This document shows, one piece after another, positions 2,987 to 32,901 of a stretch of 53,680 nt of DNA. The notes beneath the pieces were generated by a model. That model was not told the origin of the DNA, did not search any database, and saw only the letters and a program-made list of their open reading frames with translations. Numbering within the stretch: the first letter of the stretch is position 1; each line of letters begins with the position of its first letter. A program made the position numbers and the translations under genes. The DNA lies in NCBI GenBank assembly GCA_947458145.1, contig CANGYM010000001.1:1-53680 (forward strand), in the 5' to 3' direction. This DNA comes from Alphaproteobacteria bacterium (GTDB taxonomy: Bacteria > Pseudomonadota > Alphaproteobacteria > JAJTHO01 > CANGYM01).

Positions 2987-4699
2987 ATGACCCTGAACGA
3001 TGATTTTTTGGAACGTTTGCGTGAATCCGTGCGGATCGAGGATGTTATCCGCGCCCGCATCCCCCTGAAAAAAGCAGGACATGAGTATAAGGGGTTATGT
3101 CCGTTTCATACCGAAAAAACCCCGTCCTTTCACGTCATTCCCAGCAAACAATTTTTTCATTGCTTTGGCTGTGGCGCCAGCGGTGATGTGATTAAATTTG
3201 TGAAGGATTTTGATAAGGGGGGATTTTTAGCAGCGGTGAAAACACTGGCGGATCTGGGGGGATTGACGATACCCACAGCGGAAACCGCCCCCGCCCCTGC
3301 TGAGGATACGCGGTATTTTACGCTGTATGAACAGGCCAGTGCCTTTTATCAACATACCTTGGCCAGCGACGGCGCCGCCCAGCGGTATCTGACCCAGCGG
3401 GGCATAACCGCCGCCAGTGTGAAACACTTTTCTTTGGGCTTTGCCCCCGATGCATGGGATGCCCTCAGCCGGTTTTTGATGACCAGAGACCACCGCCCCC
3501 ACGATATGGTGGAAGCAGGGCTGTGCGTTCAAAAGGATCTAAACCGCGCCCCCTTTGACCGTTTTCGGCACCGTTTGATGTTTCCCATCCAAAATCGAAA
3601 AGGGAAAGTTGTGGCCTTTGGGGGCCGAACCCTGCCCGGGGGGGGCGTTACGGATCATGCCGATGCCCCAAAATACCTGAATTCCCCAGAAACAGAGTAT
3701 TTTCAAAAAAACCGGATGCTCTATGGGTTGTTTCAGGCGCTGCCCACGCTGAGAAAAACCCGCCGCGCCACCGTGGTTGAAGGGTATACCGACGTTATCC
3801 TGTTGCACCAACAGGGTTACACCGATGCCGTGGCCCCGCTGGGGACGGCGTTTACGGAAACCCAAATGTCCATCCTGTGGTCCTTGGTGGATCAGATTGT
3901 GGTGTGTTTTGATGGGGATGCCGCCGGCATGCGGGCAGCCGAGCGCTGCATCCAGCGTATTTTGCCGGATTTGCGCCCCGAAAAATCCATCGCCATCATG
4001 ATGATGGATGTCGGCGAAGACCCCGCCAGCCTGATGGCCGCAGGGGGACAGGCCCGCTGGGATCAAATGCAAAATCATCCCCTGTCGATTCTGGATTTTT
4101 GGATGTGGATTCATCGCCAAACCTTGGCCGGATCAGGACACGACCGCGCGGCCCTGATGAAACAGCTGCTTTCGGATTGCGACGTGATTCGGGATCCGGA
4201 CTTAAGGGCTTTTTATAAACAAGATATTCGGGATCGTTTTTACCACGCGCGACGCGTCCCCTCAGCATTGTCAAAAAAACAACCCTTTGCGGGGATGGGG
4301 GGGCCCCTGCCCTCCCCCAAAGCCAATTTGGATCGGATGTGTTGCGCCCTGCTGGCGGATTTGGCCCATCATCCAGAGTGGTTAGAAGATGCCGCGGAAC
4401 TTTTGGGGCATTTGACGTTTCCCAACCCCCTGATTGATGCCATTCGGGGGCGCGTGGTGGACATGGCGGTTCAGGGACTTGACAAAACAACAGACCAACC
4501 CTATATCAATCCATCCCAGTGGATTCAGAATGCGCTTCCGGCGCTGGAACTTTGGAAATCAGACGCTGTCATGCCCCAGTTGTTTTTAAAGCCATCCCAT
4601 GATGTTTATGATCTTTGGCATGAAAGTTGTCTGAAACTGAAACGAAGTTTAGACCTGTCTCAATCTCGGCAAAAAAAGGCCGGAAGGCCCCTGCGATGA
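2987..4699 (+). CDS. dnaG: DNA primase
   Basis: CHC2 zinc finger CPFHTEKTPSFHV...FHCFGCGASGD and TOPRIM motifs (EGYTDV, FDGDAAG). It lies directly upstream of rpoD, the conserved dnaG-rpoD pair. Confidence 0.95.
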   Translation: MTLNDDFLERLRESVRIEDVIRARIPLKKAGHEYKGLCPFHTEKTPSFHVIPSKQFFHCFGCGASGDVIKFVKDFDKGGFLAAVKTLADLGGLTIPTAETAPAPAEDTRYFTLYEQASAFYQHTLASDGAAQRYLTQRGITAASVKHFSLGFAPDAWDALSRFLMTRDHRPHDMVEAGLCVQKDLNRAPFDRFRHRLMFPIQNRKGKVVAFGGRTLPGGGVTDHADAPKYLNSPETEYFQKNRMLYGLFQALPTLRKTRRATVVEGYTDVILLHQQGYTDAVAPLGTAFTETQMSILWSLVDQIVVCFDGDAAGMRAAERCIQRILPDLRPEKSIAIMMMDVGEDPASLMAAGGQARWDQMQNHPLSILDFWMWIHRQTLAGSGHDRAALMKQLLSDCDVIRDPDLRAFYKQDIRDRFYHARRVPSALSKKQPFAGMGGPLPSPKANLDRMCCALLADLAHHPEWLEDAAELLGHLTFPNPLIDAIRGRVVDMAVQGLDKTTDQPYINPSQWIQNALPALELWKSDAVMPQLFLKPSHDVYDLWHESCLKLKRSLDLSQSRQKKAGRPLR

Positions 4700-4764: not shown

Positions 4765-6858
4765 ATGGCCGAAAAAAAACATTTGGATACCATGGAAACT
4801 GAAGAGGTTTTGGGATCTTCGGGGATTTTAACCTTTGAAGAATCCTTTAAAAAACTTCGGAAAATTGGAAAGCTCAAAGGCTATATCACCTACGATCAAT
4901 TAAACGATATTTTGCCAACCGAGGCCTTTTCGTCCGAACAAATCGACGAAGTCATCGCCAAAATCGGGGCCGCGGGCATTGATATCGTGGATGATGATGA
5001 TCTGGAGGGTCTGGAGGAAGAAGAAACCGCCAAAAACAAACGGCGCAAACCCACCGACGATGATGATGACGGTGATGGGGGATCTTCAGAGGCCTTTGTC
5101 GGCGAAGAGCGCACATCCGGAAACATCGATGATAGTTCGGTTTCCCACTATGATGACCCTGTTCGGGTGTATCTGTCCGAAATGGGCAATAAGGGCCTGC
5201 TATCCCGCGAAGGTGAGGTCGAAATTGCCAAACGGATCGAGGCTGGTCGTGAACGCATGATCGGCGGGATTTGTGAAAGCCCCCTAACCATGCTGGCCAT
5301 CAGTGCGTGGTATGATGCCTTGACTGAAAACAAAATTATGCTGCGGGATGTTATTGATTTGGAAGCCACCTATGGGGCTGACGGCGAGGCACCGGCAGAG
5401 TTATTGGAAAGCTTGCTGCCCCCTGAAGAATTAAAAAAAGACGATGAATCCCCAGCCACGGAAGATGTGCGTGCTGAGCCCGAGTCTTCCCCTGAATCCC
5501 CCGCGACAGACGAAACCGAAGAAAACGCAGAAAAACCTGCCCGAGACGCTGATGAGGACGAAGACGACGAAGAGGATACCGAGGGTTTTGGTGTGTCCCT
5601 GTCTGCCATGGAAGAGCGTTTAAAACCCCAAGTTTTGGAAACATTCAAAAAAATCAGTCTGGTTTATGAAGATTTACGGGCCCTGCAGGAAAACCGTATT
5701 GAACTGTTACAAAAAGGCCACACGCTGCAACCAACGGAAGAAGAGGCCTATAACACCAAACACAAAGAAATCGTCACGCTGCTGGAAAGCATCCATCTGA
5801 ATAACGAACGTTTGGAACAGTTGGTGGAACAACTGTATGGCATGAACAAATCCCTGATGCAGCAGGAAGGGAAGCTGTTGCGTCTGGCCGAAAAATGCAA
5901 AATCAAACGCAGTGACTTTTTACAAAGCTATTTTGGATCCGAACTGGACCCCACATGGGTGGATCGCATGGCGGATCGCAAATCCAAGCCTTGGCAGATG
6001 TTTATTGAAAAATACTGCGATGAAATTACCGCAACGCGGGAAATGATTTCGGAAATTTCCGCCCAAAGCGGCCTGCCCATTTCGGAATTTCGCCGCGTTG
6101 TCCAAACCGTTCAGCGTGGCGAGCGGGAATCCAACCGTGCCAAAAAAGAAATGATCGAGGCCAACCTGCGCCTTGTCATCTCCATTGCCAAAAAATATAC
6201 GAACAGGGGACTGCAATTTTTGGATCTGATCCAAGAGGGCAACATTGGCCTGATGAAGGCCGTGGATAAATTTGAATACCGCCGAGGCTACAAATTTTCC
6301 ACCTATGCCACATGGTGGATTCGTCAGGCCATCACACGGTCCATCGCCGATCAGGCCCGAACCATTCGGATCCCTGTTCATATGATCGAAACCATCAACA
6401 AAATTGTGCGCACATCGCGCCAAATGATGCATGAAATTGGCCGCGAACCCACACCCGAGGAATTGGCGGTCAAGCTGCAAATGCCGCTGGATAAAGTGCG
6501 CAAAGTTATGAAAATCGCCAAAGAGCCCATCAGTCTGGAAACGCCCGTGGGGGATGAAGAAGACAGCTCCCTTGGGGATTTCATTGAGGATAAAAACACC
6601 ATCATTCCGTTGGATGCCGCCATTCATGCCAACCTGAAGGACACCACCACCAAAATCCTCTCCACCCTGACGGCCCGTGAAGAGCGCGTTTTGCGGATGC
6701 GTTTTGGTATCGGCATGAACACGGATCACACGCTAGAGGAAGTGGGCCAGCAATTCTCGGTCACCAGAGAGCGTATCCGCCAGATCGAGGCCAAAGCCCT
6801 GCGGAAACTGAAACACCCCTCGCGGTCCCGTCAGCTGAGAAGTTTTTTGGATACATGA
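4765..6858 (+). CDS. rpoD: Primary RNA polymerase sigma factor (sigma-70) with a long acidic non-conserved insert
   Basis: Regions 2-4 are recognisable: [52 protein letters not shown] and [28 protein letters not shown]. The acidic D/E-rich stretch spans about residues 215-270. Confidence 0.97.
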
Positions 6859-12464: not shown

Positions 12465-14489
12465 ATGAGGGATAACCGTGACCAGCTGCATGCCATTAAA
12501 AAAATTTCCCTGACCGAGGCCGTCACCTTTGGTCAAGGGGATACGGTGGACTTTACCAATCCTTTGCCACCGTTTTCTTTTGATCCGCATATCACCGCCT
12601 ACGCCACGCAGAAACACAACGAAATTGCCTATGTCATGGCGCCGCATATTGTGCCTCGGTTTTCCCTGATGGAGACACAAAACAAAATTGAGAATCCCCA
12701 TCTTCTTCAAGGGTATGCCGCCCATCCTATTCGGGTTCAAGAGACTCCCTACAGCCAAACCCTCATCATCGCCCAAAAACCTGGGGACATTTCTTTAACC
12801 TCACAAGAGGCTCGGAATTTTTTCCAAATTCACAAAAATGTGGCGGAATGGTTGATTAGGCCCATGGTTAAGATTTTGAGGGATTTTGAAGAGCTGAATT
12901 TAACCCATCGGGCTATCCATCCGGCACGCATCACCTTCGATGATTTTTCGTTTCAAAACCTAAACCTCGGATATGGTTTTTTGACACCCCCCGGTTTTTT
13001 ACAACCCGCTTGCTATGAACCTCTGCAAACCTGCTTTGCTGAACCCACAGCCCGTGGGGCAGGCCACCCAAGCTATGATTTGTATGCCTTGGGCGTCACC
13101 ATTCTCTCTTTGTTCAAAGATCCAAAATTTTTACAACCCCTTTCGTTTGCGGACATAAACAAAAGACGGCTCAGCGAAGGAAGCTATGCTTTTTTTCTTG
13201 AAAAACAAATGTTCTCCGAAAGAATTACCGAGCTTCTTAAGGGGCTTATTTGCGATGATCTGAGCCAACGCTGGACCCCTGATGATTTGGAATCTTGGGC
13301 TGATTTTAATAAAGTCCACGCGCGTTACCGCCCCCCACAAAAGAGCGCAACCAAACCTTTTGTATACCAAGGTCAAGAATACAACAGCCCTGCCTTGCTC
13401 ATTCACCAAATGGGCACAGACCACACTTGGGCCCAGGATGTTATTTTTTCTGAAGATTTCCGTGTTTGGATGCGTCGCAATGCCGGCCAACATGAAAACA
13501 CTGTTGGCATCGAAGACGCCAAGGCTTCTGCCTCTCGCACCGAAGCCAGTATACGGCAGGATGCTATTGTCTCTTATTGCCTTATGGCCTTGGATCCTGA
13601 GCGTCCTCTTTATTTTAAGGGCCTTGTCTTCACACCGGACGGGATTGGGGATCATTTGGCGGCCTACTTCTATGACACACAAAAGCGTTCTGATACTGCT
13701 GCTTTGCTCAGCAGCAAAGCCCCCTTGTTCTGGCTTTCTTTAAAAGAGCAAAAGTCCCCCCAGGTTCTGCGTTTTAACAAACTGTATCAAGAATCAGCCA
13801 ATTTTTTATCCAAACGCGGCATAGGATTTGGGATAGAGCGCTGCCTTTATGAACTCAATCCCCATGTCCCATGTCAGAGCCCCCTTTTGAATACAGTAGC
13901 GATGTATGATCGCACTGATATGCTGGAGGCTCTTAATCATTACGCCGCGCATAATCCGGGGCAACTTTCTGCGAAGCTTCCCATAGACCGTCATCTTATG
14001 GCTTATGCCGCCACACACTATGATTTTATTAAAGATGATTTTCTAAACGCCTTTCCCGATGAGAGGGCCCCCAAAGAACAAAAAATCATCGGATGCCTTC
14101 GTTTTCTTTCCTTAATTGAAAAAAACACCAATACTCAACCTTTAAAAGATCTGTATTATTGGGTGCATGATCTTAGTTTACAAAGCATCGGTATTTACCG
14201 ATCAAAAAAACGGCGTGACATGATCCAAAAATTGCTGGAATCTCAGCGCAACCCCTGTCTCATCGATCGTCTTTTGGATTGGATTGACAATACGGCTGAA
14301 AAAAAAGCGGACATGGATGAATTTATGGATGCCAAAAAGCATCATATTTATACGGTCCATAAAATCAAAGAGTGGCAGTTTAAACTGGACAATATCCGAA
14401 GCGTATCCCGTGATATTTGCGATAATTTTTCGATTTTGTTAGCGGCCTTGGGAAGCCTCTTTATGGCCGCCCTTTATCTTTTTGTTTAA
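12465..14489 (+). CDS. Tail-anchored protein-kinase-like protein (predicted pseudokinase), 674 aa, no named family recognised
   Basis: The kinase-fold C-lobe is recognisable: LIRPMVKILRDFEELNLTHRAIHPARITF (HRD loop degenerated to HRA...R), SYDLYALGVTILSLF (subdomain IX) and DDLSQRWTPDDL (subdomain XI). There is no GxGxxG, VAIK or DFG. The extreme C-terminus FSILLAALGSLFMAALYLFV is a single TM helix. The coding sequence is AT-rich. Confidence 0.6.
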   Translation: MRDNRDQLHAIKKISLTEAVTFGQGDTVDFTNPLPPFSFDPHITAYATQKHNEIAYVMAPHIVPRFSLMETQNKIENPHLLQGYAAHPIRVQETPYSQTLIIAQKPGDISLTSQEARNFFQIHKNVAEWLIRPMVKILRDFEELNLTHRAIHPARITFDDFSFQNLNLGYGFLTPPGFLQPACYEPLQTCFAEPTARGAGHPSYDLYALGVTILSLFKDPKFLQPLSFADINKRRLSEGSYAFFLEKQMFSERITELLKGLICDDLSQRWTPDDLESWADFNKVHARYRPPQKSATKPFVYQGQEYNSPALLIHQMGTDHTWAQDVIFSEDFRVWMRRNAGQHENTVGIEDAKASASRTEASIRQDAIVSYCLMALDPERPLYFKGLVFTPDGIGDHLAAYFYDTQKRSDTAALLSSKAPLFWLSLKEQKSPQVLRFNKLYQESANFLSKRGIGFGIERCLYELNPHVPCQSPLLNTVAMYDRTDMLEALNHYAAHNPGQLSAKLPIDRHLMAYAATHYDFIKDDFLNAFPDERAPKEQKIIGCLRFLSLIEKNTNTQPLKDLYYWVHDLSLQSIGIYRSKKRRDMIQKLLESQRNPCLIDRLLDWIDNTAEKKADMDEFMDAKKHHIYTVHKIKEWQFKLDNIRSVSRDICDNFSILLAALGSLFMAALYLFV

Positions 14490-19243: not shown

Positions 19244-19897
19244 TCAAACAACCCTCTGCCCCGTTTTTGCCCAATCGTCACGAAAGGCCGCCAGACCCTT
19301 TTCTGTCAGGCTGTGGGTGAAGAGTTGATAAAAAATCGACGGGGGGCAGGTCACCACATCGGCGCCGATCAAGCTGGCGCGGCGGACGTGGTCCGTGTGG
19401 CGGATGGAGGCCGCCAGAATTTCGGTTTCAAACCCATAATTGTCATACATATCCCGAATGTCCTGAATCAGGCCCATGCCATCTTGACCCTGATCATCCA
19501 AACGCCCAACAAAGGGGGAAATGTAGCTGGCGCCTGCCTTGGCGGCCAGCAGCGCCTGATTCAAACTGAAACACAGGGTGACATTCACGGGGATATGATC
19601 CTGACGCAACCGGCGACAGGTCATCAGACCGTCAACGGTCAGGGGGACTTTGATGACGATGTTTTTGCCCAGCGTCACCAGTTTTTCAGCCTCCCGCATC
19701 ATGGTGGGGTGGTCTTCGGCGGTGACTTCGGCGCTGATGGGGCCCGGGACGACGGCGGCGATATCCCGGATGACCTCTAAAAAATCCCGCCCCGATTTAT
19801 AAATCAAACTGGGGTTGGTGGTGACACCATCCACCAGACCCATCGCATTCAGCTTTTGAATTTCTGGCAATTCTGCGCTATCAACAAAGAACTTCAT
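19244..19897 (-). CDS. tal: Short-form transaldolase / fructose-6-phosphate aldolase family protein (217 aa)
   Basis: [16 protein letters not shown]...GVTTNPSL...IVIKVPLT...SPFVGRLDD match the type-3B transaldolase motifs. Confidence 0.9.
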
Positions 19898-19925
19898 GAC
19901 ATCTGAACCCATAATGCAGGAAACG

Positions 19926-21908
19926 ATGCATACTTTTGCAGACACTCAGGGCTTCGTCAATGTTTTGCTGCCCATGGTGCTGGATCGGCCCCTGACCTAT
20001 ACCACGTCACAGGATGTCTCGGTGGGGCAGTATGTCCGTGTTCCTTTTCGCAATCGGTCCTTAACCGGCATTGTGTGGGAAACGGATGTACCGCATCCCG
20101 CCCTGAAAACCCTGAAGCCCCTGCTGAAAATCCATGATTTTCCGCCGTTATCCCCAGATTTTATCGCGTTTTTAACATGGTGCGCGGATTATACCGTCAG
20201 CAGTATGGGGAAAATCCTGAAACTGGCCCTGCCGCTGCAGGATGCCTTTCAGGACACCCCCAGCAAGCAAACCTTTGCCCCGCCTCAGGTGGCGCATCGC
20301 TCTGTGGTGTTTGATGATGCCCAAAAAGTCGCCCTGACAAAACTGTTGTCGCTCACCACAGAGCATCCGGACAAAGTGGCCCTGCTGGACGGGGAAACGG
20401 GATCGGGAAAAACAGAGGTGTATCTGGACATTGTGGCCGCCGCGCTGGCACGGGGACAGCAAGCCCTGATCATGCTGCCGGAAATTGCCCTGTCCACCCA
20501 GATGCTGCGCCGGTTTTCGGATCGCTTCGGCGCGGAGCCCGCCCTGTGGCATTCCCATTTAACCCCCGCCAAGCGCCGCGACACGTGGCGGGCCATTGTG
20601 ACGGGACAGGCGCCCTTGGTGCTGGGGGCGCGATCGGCCCTGTTTTTGCCCTATCCCAATTTGGGCGTGATGGTGGTGGATGAGGAACACGAAAGCGCCT
20701 ATAAACAAGACGACGGCGTTTTATACCACGCCCGCGATATGGCGGTGGCGCGGGGGCACAGGGAAAATGTGCCTGTGGTTTTGGTATCCGCCACACCGTC
20801 GCTGGAAACGTGGCACCATGTGGAACGGGGCAAATATCACGGGGTGCGCTTAACCAGCCGGTATCAGGCCACGCTGCCCGACATCACGCTGGTGGATATG
20901 CGGGGCAGGCCCGCATCCCAAGGATGGCTGCATGAAACGGTGATTGATGAAACCCGTCAAACCCTATCCCAAAACAAACAGGCCCTGTTTTTTATGAACC
21001 GGCGGGGTTACGCCCCGATGACATTATGCCGCGGGTGCGGCCACCGCTGGCGATGCCGCGATTGTTCGTCGTATTTATCGGCCCACAAGGCCATCGGCGT
21101 TTTGCAATGTCATCATTGTGGGTATAAACAGCCCATGCCGGAAACCTGCCCCGCCTGCGGCGCGGGGGAAGATGCCCTGATTCCCTGCGGCCCGGGCGTT
21201 GAGCGCATTGCCGAGGAACTGGCCACGCACTTCCCCAACCAAGAGATCGCCATTGTGTCCAGCGATGTGCTGAGCACCCCCAAAAAAATGCACGAAACGG
21301 TACAGCGCATCACACAGGGTGAGGTATCCCTGATCGTGGGCACCCAAATGATCGGCAAGGGCTATCATTTTCCCGATTTGACGTTGGTGAATGTGGTGGA
21401 CGGCGATATGGGCCTGTCGGGGGGGGATTTTCGGGCGGGGGAAAAAACGTGGCAGATGCTGCACCAAATTGCCGGACGGTCCGGACGTGGGCAGCACGCG
21501 GGAAAAGTGCTGATTCAGACCTTTGTGCCGGATCATCTGTTGATGCAAACCCTGCAGCGCCATGATCGCGAAGGCTTTTATCGCGCCCTGATCAAAGAAC
21601 GCACGTTGGGCCACTGGCCCCCGTTTACCCGTCTGGCGGCGTTGATTGTGTCAGGACGGGCGCTGGTTCGGGTGGATGCGGCCTGCCGCACGTTGCTGGG
21701 GAGTGCCCCCAAAACCGATGCGTTTGAGGTTCTGGGCCCCGCCCCTGCCCCGCTGTCGCCGCTGCGCGGGGAACACCGTATGCGATTTCTGGTGCGCTGC
21801 GCCCCGCAAAAACGCCTGTCGGCCTATATGAAAACATGGCTGTCGGCCACCCCCCTGCCCCCCGATGTTCAGGTTCAGGTGGATATGGATCCGGTGTCGT
21901 TTGTGTAA
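19926..21908 (+). CDS. priA: Primosomal protein N' (replication restart helicase PriA)
   Basis: Walker [18 protein letters not shown], and the Cys-rich zinc region [17 protein letters not shown]...CHHCGY...CPACG are present. An AGGA lies 4-5 nt before the ATG at 19926. Earlier in-frame ATGs at 19896 and 19914 would overlap or abut the tal start. Confidence 0.9.
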
Positions 21909-21940: not shown

Positions 21941-22411
21941 TTAGCCGTTTGTATTTCCTTGCCATTGAAGAAATCCTAGGGCTACAGACCCAGAAGACTG
22001 AACAGGTTGGGTGTTGTTTTTTGGTGAATCAGGGCAAAGGACATAAACGGCCCTTTCCATAAAAGACAACACTTTTGGTATATCATGTGATCCGATTGGG
22101 GATAGCAATGCGGGACCCTTTGCATCTCCCTGTGAAGCAACAACTGTTCCTGTTTTGTCAAAGCCCACAGAAAATTTGTTCATCCTGTCGTGATAACGAA
22201 CAGAACTTTGGCCATTAAGAAAGCTGTCACCGTCTGAACATGACCCCCCATGGCGCGTAATTTCACCGTGAATGTCCCTCAGACGCTGGGAATTGGAAAC
22301 ATTCTCCTCGTGCCTAGGATCCTTAAAATATTGTCCCCCCCCCCCCCACACAGCCAACACAGCAGCAACACCAGCAACACCAGCCATCAATTGGCTTCTA
22401 GAAATCCCCAT
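21941..22411 (-). CDS. Secreted hypothetical protein, paralogue A (156 aa), carrying the poly-G tract
   Basis: It has a signal-peptide-like N-terminus MGISRSQLMAGVAGVAAVLAVW and two Cys (SCSDGD, VLCPDS). It shares the 5' control region and motif order with 22517-23086. The coding sequence is AT-rich. Confidence 0.6.
   Translation of the reverse strand: MGISRSQLMAGVAGVAAVLAVWGGGGQYFKDPRHEENVSNSQRLRDIHGEITRHGGSCSDGDSFLNGQSSVRYHDRMNKFSVGFDKTGTVVASQGDAKGPALLSPIGSHDIPKVLSFMERAVYVLCPDSPKNNTQPVQSSGSVALGFLQWQGNTNG
22335..22347. repeat. Homopolymeric tract C13 (G13 on the coding strand) within codons 22-26 of the 21941-22411 gene
   Basis: Direct count gives ttgt + 13 c + aca. The coding strand reads TGG GGG GGG GGG GGA (W G G G G). 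Confidence 0.95.
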
Positions 22412-22473
22412 ACCCCAATCCCCCCATTCAAAAATATAATGCGTTTATCCTACGGTTAAAAAAAGAAAAAATC

Positions 22474-22489
22474 TGTGACGGATGTCACG
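22474..22489. promoter_or_regulatory. TGTGA-N6-TCACG near-palindrome (core GTGAC-N4-GTCAC), copy 1
   Basis: tgtgacggatgtcacg lies 63-78 nt upstream of the ATG at 22411. It is embedded in a 25-nt block (22465-22489) identical to 23137-23161. Confidence 0.5.
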
Positions 22490-22516
22490 TTGTGGGGGCG
22501 CCGCAATGATGGGGGG

Positions 22517-23086
22517 TTACATTTGAAATGTAGGTGGTGCCAAAAGTTGCACAATCACAGGGTAAGAAGGTTCTTCCGATTTTGGCTTACAGGCTTTACT
22601 AACAGCCTCTTCCATGCCGCTCAAAAGTGCCTGATGTGTTTTGGTTGCATGTAAAGAAATATATGGCAATACAACCGTAGGAAGGGGTACTCCTTCCGAA
22701 AGTGGCTCTTCCTGCCCTTGGGGAGTAACCGCATAAGTGGGTATAATAGACACACTCCCATTTCTTAGTAACATAGCCTCAGTTTGAAGGGATAAGTTAT
22801 AGACTGGTGAAACAGGACCAACTGTGCTGGGGCCTTGCCATAAAGTTAGTATTTTTTTTTCGACAACACCGCCTGTTTCATCTGTAGAGACGGTAGTATT
22901 TCCATTTGAACAACGATATTCTGAAGGGCCCTTGATCCTACTCCCGTTTGTACGAATTGTTTGCTCCAACGCCCGAACCCGCTCTGCATCAGTCAAACCC
23001 TGCTGGGCCCCCACAGGCCCCGCCTGAACCAACACACAAGCCGCTGCTGCCGTCGCAACACTCAAGAATCTGTTGAACAACCCCAT
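22517..23086 (-). CDS. Secreted hypothetical protein, paralogue B (189 aa)
   Basis: It has the signal peptide MGLFNRFLSVATAAAACVLVQAGPVGAQQ and two Cys (YRCSNGN, KACKPKS) in the same order as paralogue A. A shared C-terminal motif reads LLSGMEEAVSKAC here and VLSFMERAVYVLC in A. I chose the ATG at 23084-23086, because the track start 23206 includes the upstream operator. Confidence 0.6.
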   Translation of the reverse strand: MGLFNRFLSVATAAAACVLVQAGPVGAQQGLTDAERVRALEQTIRTNGSRIKGPSEYRCSNGNTTVSTDETGGVVEKKILTLWQGPSTVGPVSPVYNLSLQTEAMLLRNGSVSIIPTYAVTPQGQEEPLSEGVPLPTVVLPYISLHATKTHQALLSGMEEAVSKACKPKSEEPSYPVIVQLLAPPTFQM

Positions 23087-23145
23087 ACCCCACCCCCATT
23101 GAAAAACATTATTCCCCCACCATACGGGCATTGTTGGAAAAAATC

Positions 23146-23161
23146 TGTGACGGATGTCACG
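23146..23161. promoter_or_regulatory. TGTGA-N6-TCACG near-palindrome, copy 2
   Basis: The same 16-mer lies 60-75 nt upstream of the ATG at 23086 and 56-71 nt upstream of the divergent dnaB start. Confidence 0.5.
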
Positions 23162-23216
23162 GAATGGGGTTATGCTGAAAAGATAATCGCGCTTCCCCCA
23201 TGACAATGGTTCCAGA

Positions 23217-24740
23217 GTGCCCTATAAACACTTTATGACCGACACGTTATCCCCTTTGCACGCCCAAGGTGCCCTGTCCCGAACCCCGCCCGCAAATTTG
23301 GAGGTGGAGCAAGCCCTGCTGGGCACTCTGCTGGCCAACAACACGGCGTATGAACAGATTGCGGATTTTCTGTTGCCGGACCATTTCGCCCATGGTTTGC
23401 ATGCCACCCTATACAGTGCCATTGTGCGGATGATTGACAAAGGGCAGATGGCCAGCCCCCTGACCCTAAAACCGCTGTTCGAGGATCATGCGGACCTCGC
23501 CCCCTTTGGCGGGGGCGGCGCGTATTTACAGGATTTGGCCGATTCCGTCATATCCAGCATCAATATCCATGATTTCGCCCGCATCATTTACGATTACGCC
23601 CTGCGGCGCAATCTGATTGACGTGGGACAGACGGTGGTGAACAACGCCTTTGATCTGGCCCGCGACGGCACCGCCATGGATCAAATCGCCGAAACGGAAC
23701 ACGCCCTTTACACCTTGGCCACCAAGGGCATGGCCCAAAAAACCTATGTGGCCTTTGGCAGCACCCTGACCCAAACCATGAAAATTATTGAGGCGGCCTA
23801 TAAGAGAGAAGGGGCCCTCAGCGGCCTGTCCTCTGGCTTTACGGACATGGACCGGTTGCTGGGGGGGCTGCAAAATTCCGATTTGATTATTTTGGCGGGG
23901 CGGCCATCCATGGGAAAAACGTCTCTGGTCACCAACATGGCGTTTCATGCATCGTCCCATGCCACCATCAAACGGCAAACCAACGGCGAGGTCAAAGTCA
24001 CCAACGGCGCCGTCGTGGCCTTTTTTTCGCTGGAAATGTCGGCGGAACAGTTGGCGTCCCGTATTTTGTCGGAACGGGCCAACGTGCCATCGGAAAAAAT
24101 CCGTCGGGGGGATTTAACCGATCAAGAATTTCAAAATCTGGCGCAGGCCGCCCGCGATCTGGCGGAAATTCCCCTGTATATTGACGATACGCCGGCCATT
24201 TCCGTATCCAGCCTGCGCACGCGGGCGCGAAAATTAAAACGCCAGCACCAGCTGGGCCTGATTGTCGTGGATTATCTGCAGCTGATGCAGGCCAGCGTGG
24301 GCGGACGCCCCGAAAACCGCGTGAATGAAATTTCCGAAATCACCCGCGGCCTGAAACAAATCGCCAAGGAATTACAAGTTCCTGTCATTGCCCTGTCCCA
24401 GCTGTCGCGGGCCGTGGAAAACCGCGAAGACAAACGCCCCCAACTGGCCGATTTGCGGGAATCCGGATCCATCGAGCAAGATGCCGATGTGGTCATGTTT
24501 GTGTACCGCGAGGAGTACTATCTGCAGCGCAACGAACCCACCCAGCGCCAAGATGAAGGCAAAGACGCCCACCAAAAACGCTATGACGAATGGATGACCC
24601 GACTGGCCGAGGCCGAAAACATCGCCGAAGTGATCATCGCCAAACAACGACACGGCCCCACGGGGAAGGTCAAGCTGTTCTTTGACGGATCCACCACAAA
24701 ATTCAGCGATCTGATGCAGGATGGCGGGCAGAAGGGTTAG
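23217..24740 (+). CDS. dnaB: Replicative DNA helicase
   Basis: PPANLEVEQALLGTLL is the DnaB N-domain. Walker A GRPSMGKTS, VDYLQLM and SQLSRAVENREDKRPQLADLRESGSIEQDADVV are present. There is no intein-sized insert. Confidence 0.95.
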   Translation: MPYKHFMTDTLSPLHAQGALSRTPPANLEVEQALLGTLLANNTAYEQIADFLLPDHFAHGLHATLYSAIVRMIDKGQMASPLTLKPLFEDHADLAPFGGGGAYLQDLADSVISSINIHDFARIIYDYALRRNLIDVGQTVVNNAFDLARDGTAMDQIAETEHALYTLATKGMAQKTYVAFGSTLTQTMKIIEAAYKREGALSGLSSGFTDMDRLLGGLQNSDLIILAGRPSMGKTSLVTNMAFHASSHATIKRQTNGEVKVTNGAVVAFFSLEMSAEQLASRILSERANVPSEKIRRGDLTDQEFQNLAQAARDLAEIPLYIDDTPAISVSSLRTRARKLKRQHQLGLIVVDYLQLMQASVGGRPENRVNEISEITRGLKQIAKELQVPVIALSQLSRAVENREDKRPQLADLRESGSIEQDADVVMFVYREEYYLQRNEPTQRQDEGKDAHQKRYDEWMTRLAEAENIAEVIIAKQRHGPTGKVKLFFDGSTTKFSDLMQDGGQKG

Positions 24741-32400: not shown

Positions 32401-32901
32401 TTAACCTTTGGTGGGCGCGGCGCTTTTTATTCTTTTGAACACCCAAAGGCCCCAGCCAAGCATGGCCCCAGAAAGCACCATATTCATATCGGCCATACTC
32501 AACCCCGCCAACAAAAAAGCAGGTCGATCGCAGGGCGTCACCGTCGCTTGGCGGATCATCGCCTCCAGCTCCGCAATGCTATCCGCCCCTTGAGAAGAAC
32601 TGGCGCAGGCTGGAAAGGTCCAAAGCCCCGCCTCAACCCCTGCATGATACCCCCCTAGGATCAGGCTGATCGCCCAGACCCCCATCAACAGCAGCGTTAT
32701 TATCTTGCTGTACCCTTTGAATGCAAACCCTGCAACCAAACCTACCACCAAAACAGCAAAATACGGCAACCTTTGGTAAAGACAAAGAGGACAAGGCTGC
32801 AGGTTGAAACCATACTGAGCCACAAAAACCACCAACAGGGCAGCGGCGGCCAAGGTGGCGCTGACGGCAGCATAGGAAGAAGGGTGCAAAAACGATTTCA
32901 T
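32401..32901 (-). CDS. dsbB: Disulfide bond formation protein B family
   Basis: CPLCLYQR (CxxC after TM1), a second Cys pair in the periplasmic loop (PACASS...TPCD), and four TM helices. Confidence 0.85.
   Translation of the reverse strand: MKSFLHPSSYAAVSATLAAAALLVVFVAQYGFNLQPCPLCLYQRLPYFAVLVVGLVAGFAFKGYSKIITLLLMGVWAISLILGGYHAGVEAGLWTFPACASSSQGADSIAELEAMIRQATVTPCDRPAFLLAGLSMADMNMVLSGAMLGWGLWVFKRIKSAAPTKG

Follow-up and report, generated by a model that had tools for sequence, protein, structure and literature searches.

A probable two-gene contingency locus of small, predicted exported paralogues between dnaB and priA in a freshwater alphaproteobacterium

What are two small, AT-rich genes, one of them carrying a long run of G, doing between two replication genes of a lake bacterium? 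The question arises from a contig of an Alphaproteobacteria bacterium (GCA_947458145.1, contig CANGYM010000001.1, positions 1-53,680 of the forward strand), which we analysed over its full 53,680 nucleotides (nt) and refer to as the window. A first-pass annotation, made from the letters alone, had reported two minus-strand open reading frames (ORFs) of 156 and 189 amino acids (aa) between priA and dnaB, and these are present as described. It had portrayed them as an inserted, duplicated and rapidly evolving pair of secreted proteins of unknown family, as would be expected of surface or host-interaction factors, and had mentioned a G13 tract in one copy. The tract is real (C13 on the plus strand, 22335-22347) and was underrated: it is the most informative feature of the locus and a probable ON/OFF switch. 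We consider it probable that the pair, here called genes A and B, is a two-gene contingency locus encoding a lineage-restricted family of small Sec-exported, probably disulfide-stapled paralogues. The features on which this reading turns are the following:

19896-21908, plus strand: priA, flanking the gene pair
21941-22411, minus strand: gene A, 156 aa (MGISRS...), a predicted exported two-Cys protein, in frame (ON) in the window
22335-22347, minus strand: poly-G tract, read as G13 on the coding strand; it occupies codons 22-26 of gene A, where the signal peptide ends in a run of Gly
22517-23086, minus strand: gene B, 189 aa from the ATG at 23086 (MGLFNR...), a predicted exported two-Cys protein
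23217-24740, plus strand: dnaB, the other flank

No other G/C homopolymer in the window is as long as the G13 tract, and the runner-up has only 8 nt. We compared 11 independent contigs with the tract and read each frame starting at the conserved ATG; L003 and L004 come from two samples and have the same sequence. Tract length is G9 in three contigs, G10 in three, G11 in two, G13 in two and G17 in one. Seven alleles are in frame (ON), namely those of the window (G13), L009 (G11), L011 (G10), L008 (G17, followed to the end of the contig), and L095, L096 and L097 (G9 each); the other four, L003/L004 (G10), L012 (G10), L001 (G11) and L094 (G13), are out of frame (OFF). Translation of the OFF alleles from the ATG ends 26-39 codons in, and the shifted frame is open throughout, down to the conserved C-terminus (...GFFRPQGNTNG and similar), so that the tract is the sole lesion. 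Two predicted proteins with odd poly-Leu N-termini (P0028 and P0029) are gene-caller rescues of such alleles. The contigs among which tract length varies encode DnaB proteins that are 97-100% identical. Thus, three characteristics of simple sequence repeat (SSR) contingency loci are found here, namely a tract of about 8 units or more within an ORF, length polymorphism, and a frame switch in an otherwise intact ORF, in what appears to be the signature of slipped-strand phase variation.

Under this model, slipped-strand mispairing during replication would alter the length of the gene A tract. Changes by 3 nt would be harmless, adding or removing one Gly in a tolerant c-region of the signal peptide, and any other change would put the ATG out of frame, with translation ending about 26-39 codons in and the protein abolished. 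Gene A would toggle heritably yet reversibly between ON and OFF, the G13 state of the window being ON, and we infer that such reversible switching takes place within a strain. Gene B contains a different homopolymer, which is A9 in all three contigs compared and is probably not a switch:

22852-22860, minus strand: A9 tract in gene B, coding for KKK in EKKIL

Other long G tracts were observed among related genes. The gene B homologue of L003 has its own G10 in mid-gene (5637-5646), coding for RGGGD, and a rearranged A-type gene on the minus strand of L007 has G9 and G23 tracts (coding sequence positions 243 and 277) and is out of frame.

The two genes also evolve much faster than their neighbours. 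Across the same contig set, identity to the window in tblastn comparisons is 97-100% for DnaB, 92-98% for PriA and 98-99% for Kup, versus 40-66% for A and 38-69% for B. The ratio of non-synonymous to synonymous substitution rates (dN/dS, Nei-Gojobori) is 0.05 for dnaB and 0.16-0.17 for priA, compared with 0.58-0.72 for B and 0.99-1.66 for A. The divergence is mosaic: when the window is aligned with L003, stretches of 96-100% identity are interspersed with stretches of 40-55%, and the latter are found directly behind the two conserved Cys and at the C-terminal tails. This pattern points to segmental exchange, localised diversifying selection, or both, and it is in these patches that the mature domains would diversify.

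The DNA upstream of both genes is nearly invariant, and we designate this sequence the promoter/leader module:

22412-22497, minus strand: module of gene A, with the palindrome GTGA-N6-TCAC (22475-22488), a T-run, a -10-like TAGGAT (22447-22452) and a predicted +1 at about 22440
22412-22440, minus strand: G-rich leader of gene A, within the module
23087-23169, minus strand: module of gene B, with the palindrome at 23147-23160, a -10-like TATGGT (23119-23124) and a predicted +1 at about 23112

The 15 module copies found in 9 contigs align nearly unchanged, in the order C GTGA CATCCG TCAC AGATTTTTTC, 12 variable nt, an invariant T-A-n-n-n-T (represented by TAGGAT, TATGGT, TACAAT and TAGGGT), and AAT(G/A)GGG...TGGGGT ATG. 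Only two substitutions occur in the palindrome among these copies, both in the N6 spacer. When TAnnnT is taken as the -10 element, the centre of the palindrome falls at -41.5 from the predicted +1 (an A) in both genes. The module contains no -35 element, and its cGTGA-N6-TCACa agrees with TGTGA-N6-TCACA at 9 of 10 positions. A palindrome centred at -41.5 is the geometry of class II CRP/FNR-type activation (Busby and Ebright). The module is likely to be a promoter and may be of the CRP/FNR type: in both modules and all 15 aligned copies, the sequence and the predicted spacing would fit a class II promoter, with the reservations that the transcription start is a prediction and that the sequence can fold as a hairpin followed by a T-run. 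Genes A and B would each form a transcription unit of their own, driven by one copy of this conserved module of about 85 nt.

Two observations count against the promoter assignment: the palindrome with its T-run also scores as a weak intrinsic terminator with a 5-bp hairpin, and no CRP/FNR-family regulator was found among the window ORFs scanned. We keep a terminator as a minor alternative only. The stem is just 5 bp long, and a natural CATCCG to CATCCA variant, which would break a pair of this alternative hairpin, retains both GTGA and TCAC; furthermore, one module copy has no upstream gene on the same strand to terminate. Terminator activity could be relevant for the module copy that follows the stop codon of gene B. 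None of the Rfam families matched any part of the window at gathering thresholds; the conserved leader therefore does not belong to a known class of riboswitch or small RNA. On the mRNA strand, both leaders (23087-23112 and 22412-22440) have three or four closely spaced G runs around the start codon (GGGGG-T-GGGG-TAT-GGGG), which may represent an unusual ribosome-binding region or a G-quadruplex-like structure. A 29-nt near-identical match to the palindrome and T-run is present in L006 (8970-8998), upstream of a traA-like ORF in a contig with conjugative-transfer-like ORFs. It is probably a coincidence or a similar regulatory or terminator element; we judged the match coincidental and the contig unrelated, and rejected L006 as a related locus.

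The module also bears on the gene B model. A TTG at 23206 opens the mechanical ORF; the start frequently chosen by gene callers is an ATG at 23131, which yields 204 aa. The 204- and 229-aa versions were rejected in view of an in-frame stop in the homologous stretch upstream of A. The ATG at 23131 lies upstream of the predicted -10 element and transcription start, and for this reason we favour the 189-aa model.

Strains differ in the genes that they carry between dnaB and priA. The plain arrangement of B and A is shared by the window, L009, L013, L096 and L097; in L003 and L012, the pair is accompanied by a HigB/HigA-like toxin-antitoxin insertion, and in the shorter contigs L094 and L095, an antitoxin gene adjoins A. 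The HigA-like antitoxin gene (dnstrm_HI1420), absent from the window, lies between A and priA in L003 (6486-6803), L012 (5171-5488) and L094 (1234-1551), and L095 has a HigA-like antitoxin together with a Gp49/HigB-like toxin gene at 687-1348. The presence of antitoxin-gene insertions in several strains thus makes the dnaB-priA gap an insertion hot spot. L010 carries B and a rearranged A-type gene. L011 has a single A-type gene between dnaB and priA, and its module (3895-4020) is a hybrid, of B type on the 5' side of the palindrome and of A type on the 3' side. Such a hybrid is the expected product of recombination, by deletion or duplication, between the repeated modules, and indicates that this has taken place. 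Recombination through the conserved 5' modules and other conserved blocks would reshuffle the mature domains. By tblastn, there are no silent cassettes or extra copies in the window, and the promoter modules are the sole repeat found in the locus. We rejected a diversity-generating retroelement or an invertase as the mechanism, given that no template repeat, reverse transcriptase or recombinase is present between dnaB and priA in any locus.

The base composition of the pair is atypical as well. At 47.2%, its GC content is lower than that of the window (52.4%), priA (58.8%) or dnaB (56.2%), and GC at third codon positions (GC3) is 0.39 versus 0.68; the 35% GC counted by the first-pass annotation for line 22741-22800 was reproduced. 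Taken together, the unusual GC3 and the gene content that differs among strains make the proposed insertion of the locus plausible.

Several facts weigh against a contingency locus. A dN/dS near 1 also fits relaxed constraint, and the excess over 1 in gene A (about 46 non-synonymous versus about 9 synonymous changes) is not significant by itself. All the sequences are consensus metagenome assemblies, from which within-population tract mixtures and reversibility are deduced, and homopolymer lengths are prone to mis-assembly. Switching is not universal, given that the alleles L013, P0027, P0030, P0033 and P0034 have no tract, and gene B of the window has no variable tract. An alternative that we regard as unlikely is that A and B are decaying orphan genes under relaxed selection, with tract frameshifts that reflect early pseudogenisation or homopolymer assembly errors. 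Decay would account for the dN/dS of 0.6-1.7, the low GC3, and the loss or replacement of the genes in some strains (L010, L011), and the OFF state is known from consensus assemblies only. However, more than 40 alleles retain their ORFs, both Cys and the signal peptide, the OFF alleles are broken at the tract alone and lack a second lesion, and the tract is maintained at the same codons although its length ranges from 9 to 17. The module surpasses the adjacent housekeeping genes in conservation, which is unexpected for dead genes, and the same G10 is seen in L003 and L004, which come from different samples.

Are A and B related to one another? All the ordered motifs that the first-pass annotation had listed were found in both translations: QRLR in A and ERVR in B; CSDGD and CSNGN, respectively, which hold the first Cys; and VLSFMERAV..LC and LLSGMEEAV..AC (VLSFMERAVYVLC in A, LLSGMEEAVSKAC in B). 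The pairwise similarity, the significance of which that annotation had proposed to assess, is weak when taken alone: BLASTP gives E=0.015, and in a shuffle test of the mature parts, z=3.2, the observed score being reached in 20 of 2000 shuffles. At the profile level, the match is stronger, with the C-terminal helix and the second Cys aligned at E=4.5e-6 (probability 87%), and hidden Markov model cross-searches between A and B produce collinear N-terminal and C-terminal matches in most members. At the DNA level, about 85-95 nt upstream of both start codons form a direct repeat with a spacing of 672-675 nt, which contains the exact 23-mer GTGACATCCGTCACAGATTTTTT; none of the shuffles gave this 23-mer twice. 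In addition, the allele P0045 is a natural mosaic: it begins as B at the N-terminus, has the C-terminal motif of A ('KVLTYMEQNVGRFCKNTPSPS') and closes with a tail of B type. Because the upstream repeat, the profile match, the same predicted order of structural elements (see below) and the P0045 mosaic all agree, we accept A and B as diverged paralogues, and the claim of duplication stands.

Both translations begin with the n-, h- and c-regions of a signal peptide:

22334-22411, minus strand: signal-peptide part of gene A (MGISRSQLMAGVAGVAAVLAVWGGGG)
23006-23086, minus strand: signal-peptide part of gene B (MGLFNRFLSVATAAAACVLVQAGPVGA)

By inspection, A consists of MGISRSQ (n), LMAGVAGVAAVLAVW (h) and GGGG|Q (c), with the putative cleavage site LAVWGGGG|QYF, and B of MGLFNR (n), FLSVATAAAACVLVQAG (h) and PVGA|Q (c), with AGPVGA|QQG. 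Each has one Arg in the n-region, a hydrophobic stretch of 15-21 residues and a c-region of small residues before Gln, as in Sec/signal peptidase I (SPase I) substrates, and the c-region is kept across alleles; in all B alleles, the (-3,-1) segment before Gln is VGA, ALG or AWG. In the AlphaFold2 (AF2) models, the predicted local distance difference test (pLDDT) is below 50 at residues 1-37 of A and 1-28 of B. This anatomy alone makes both proteins predicted Sec exports, in line with the earlier description of them as secreted. In the hydrophobic core of the A signal peptide (22350-22390), GCT/GGT triplet repeats differ in number among alleles (window, L094, L003, L009); L094 has seven GCT in a row, and a change in triplet number alters the length of the poly-Ala stretch in frame.

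A different destination is conceivable for gene B, and perhaps for the entire family, if Cys17 in the signal peptide (23036-23038) were the lipidated +1 residue of an outer-membrane lipoprotein. Cys17 is found in all full-length B alleles, and a PROSITE-like lipobox rule fits 13 of the 31 B alleles, including AAAA-C of the window. We nevertheless deem this improbable: at most 5-10 hydrophobic residues precede Cys17, some B alleles have Val at -1, an SPase-I-type c-region (G-P-V-G-A|Q, A-L-G|Q or A-W-G|Q) follows 10 residues downstream in all alleles, and none of the 11 gene A alleles has a lipobox. Lipidation would affect localisation alone and is compatible with a contingency locus.

The mature proteins share two invariant Cys, Cys58 (22238-22240) and Cys126 (22034-22036) in A, and Cys59 (22910-22912) and Cys166 (22589-22591) in B. 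Across the family, these two Cys and a handful of core positions are all that is invariant in the mature domains. The AF2 model of B (mean pLDDT 77, core about 90) consists of a helix at 33-47, six strands and two helices at 137-165; that of A (mean pLDDT 59.5, core 75-80) has a helix at 40-53, five strands and a helix at 108-125. The elements come in the same order in both models, with the first Cys in the first hairpin and the second immediately after the last helix, so the search for a shared fold that the first-pass annotation had advised yielded a common predicted topology, in which a first helix leads into an antiparallel beta-meander and the C-terminal helix stops at the second Cys. The window also encodes a DsbB homologue (32401-32901, minus strand; Pfam E=7.5e-26), so the organism has the periplasmic route to disulfide formation on which exported two-Cys proteins would depend. 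Because the Cys pairs are invariant and occupy equivalent positions in both models, and DsbB is encoded in the genome, the two Cys are probably linked by a disulfide, which would pin the C-terminal helix to the first hairpin. Signal-peptide cleavage would release this mature domain.

The family appears to be confined to a narrow lineage. We found 25 clusters of homologues for gene B and 10 for gene A, all from metagenomes or metagenome-assembled genomes (MAGs), unnamed or labelled 'hypothetical protein', and none with a Pfam domain. A B profile run against 1.84 billion representative proteins produced 10 matches at E<=0.001. The matches in genome collections are Lake Mendota MAGs labelled 'Alphaproteobacteria bacterium', and the search with single proteins retrieved two pieces of one Lake Mendota MAG only. 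The nearest named relatives of DnaB among the matches listed (Kiloniellaceae, Pelagibius) are all distant, with identities of about 55% that do not exceed 56%. The Pfam, NCBIfam, PHROGs and PADLOC searches with both proteins returned nothing usable (best E 0.11-0.19, far below the curated cut-offs), the profile search of the PDB had no significant match (best E=0.09), and Foldseek comparisons of both models with the PDB and of B with BFVD gave template modelling (TM) scores of at most 0.3, with nothing at E<=0.001. Weak Foldseek matches to DUF4468, RAD52, single-stranded RNA phage coat proteins, PR-10 and BPI-like proteins were rejected as kin, being generic instances of a helix on an antiparallel sheet. 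The family is, on this evidence, lineage-restricted and uncharacterised, and its earlier designation as unknown stands. The suggested role in host interaction, by contrast, was not borne out: the relatives come from lake metagenomes and nothing indicates a host.

Could A and B instead act in the periplasm as immunity proteins, or inhibit toxins or lytic enzymes that arrive from outside, such as type VI secretion system or contact-dependent effectors or a lysozyme-type enzyme? Tandem arrays of diverged 'orphan immunity' genes that encode signal peptides are widespread and change rapidly. The small size, signal peptides, tandem diverged paralogues and hypervariability within a species would all suit such a role, and the variable patches would fit an interaction surface. 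Yet no toxin, Rhs, VgrG, PAAR or CdiA gene lies nearby in any locus examined, Pfam, NCBIfam and PADLOC contain no match, the structure comparisons point to no known immunity or inhibitor fold, and the phase-variable loss of an immunity protein would be costly. We give this possibility slightly less credence than either decay or a lipoprotein.

How does a contingency locus of this kind compare with known systems? The closest parallel to the tract is Neisseria pilC, where a poly-G tract within the signal-peptide sequence gives phase-variable expression (PMC13017665). The pilC1 and pilC2 genes of N. gonorrhoeae and N. meningitidis likewise have the tract in signal-peptide codons, with frameshift ON/OFF switching, and their products are exported paralogues that switch independently. 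There is no relation in sequence or fold, however: even at E<=10, Pfam and NCBIfam reveal no PilC/PilY1 homology, and PilC/PilY1 are pilus-tip adhesins of about 110 kDa, compared with 13-17 kDa for mature A and B (precursors of 156 and 189 aa). The bacteria that carry pilC are host-restricted pathogens, whereas here we deal with an uncultured lake alphaproteobacterium in which switching is deduced from a comparison of assemblies. Broader likeness is seen to SSR contingency loci such as the Campylobacter poly-G genes, the Haemophilus/Neisseria 'phasome' and the Bartonella SSR loci (PMC8437040, PMC5953494, PMC11466379), which have at least 8-9 G in an envelope-protein ORF, strain-polymorphic tract length, and local hypermutation combined with fast protein evolution. 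Those organisms have tens of loci with mostly known targets (lipooligosaccharide or capsule enzymes, adhesins, restriction-modification methylases), unlike the window, with its single tract of at least 9 nt in 53.7 kb and a product that belongs to a new family.

The mosaic divergence resembles that of the D-region of PilE and the hypervariable loops of Opa, where a conserved 5' part (promoter and signal peptide) and conserved blocks are combined with mosaic patches beside a conserved Cys pair, and the helix followed by an antiparallel sheet recalls type IV pilins. Neither A nor B, however, has the prepilin-peptidase motif (G|F/M-T-L-I-E), the long hydrophobic N-terminal helix of about 20 residues or a Pfam pilin match; no silent cassette store was found in the window, and there is no pentamer repeat of the opa kind. 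New here are the family of proteins, the fold predicted for it and its ecological setting; the mechanism is of an already known kind.

The remainder of the window is core chromosome, encoding EF-P, MreB, DnaG, RpoD, an LpxL-type acyltransferase, DksA, Kup, CtpA, DnaK/DnaJ, ThrRS and DnaE, among others. A 674-aa ORF without a Pfam domain (12465-14489, plus strand) is located within the lowest-GC stretch of the window (0.42 around 13751) and may likewise be atypical or acquired. The priA ORF begins with 50 nt (19896-19945, plus strand) that overlap the longest mechanical ORF of a divergent transaldolase-like gene (19244-19945, minus strand, GTG start), and one of the two genes probably has its true start further inside.

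The locus displays all the comparative hallmarks of a contingency gene within the core replication-gene neighbourhood of an abundant uncultured lake alphaproteobacterium. The benefit of such a gene would be population heterogeneity in an exported or surface-exposed protein that is recognised by an antagonist, with phages, grazers and competitor toxins as the candidates. To our knowledge, phase variation through simple repeats has been worked out almost wholly in host-adapted pathogens and commensals, and a full-text literature search that joined phase variation, homopolymeric, metagenome and freshwater returned no paper. Tract length and allele type provide a trackable marker with which arms races between individual strains and phages or grazers could be followed in long lake time series, such as that of Lake Mendota. 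Hypothetical proteins that look 'frameshifted' or have odd starts in MAG catalogues can be alleles in the OFF phase. Gene B supplies a confident prediction of a new small alpha/beta fold (core pLDDT about 90) for experiments. A bolder proposition, which we advance tentatively and consider rather doubtful as a whole, is that free-living uncultured freshwater Alphaproteobacteria possess a genuine contingency locus, a module-flanked, cassette-like pair with a new disulfide-stapled exported fold, a poly-G toggle and a Cys-proximal surface diversified by phages or grazers. If this is the case, stochastic surface variation in the style of pathogens would also be used by lake bacterioplankton, and the family would mark a targeted surface structure.

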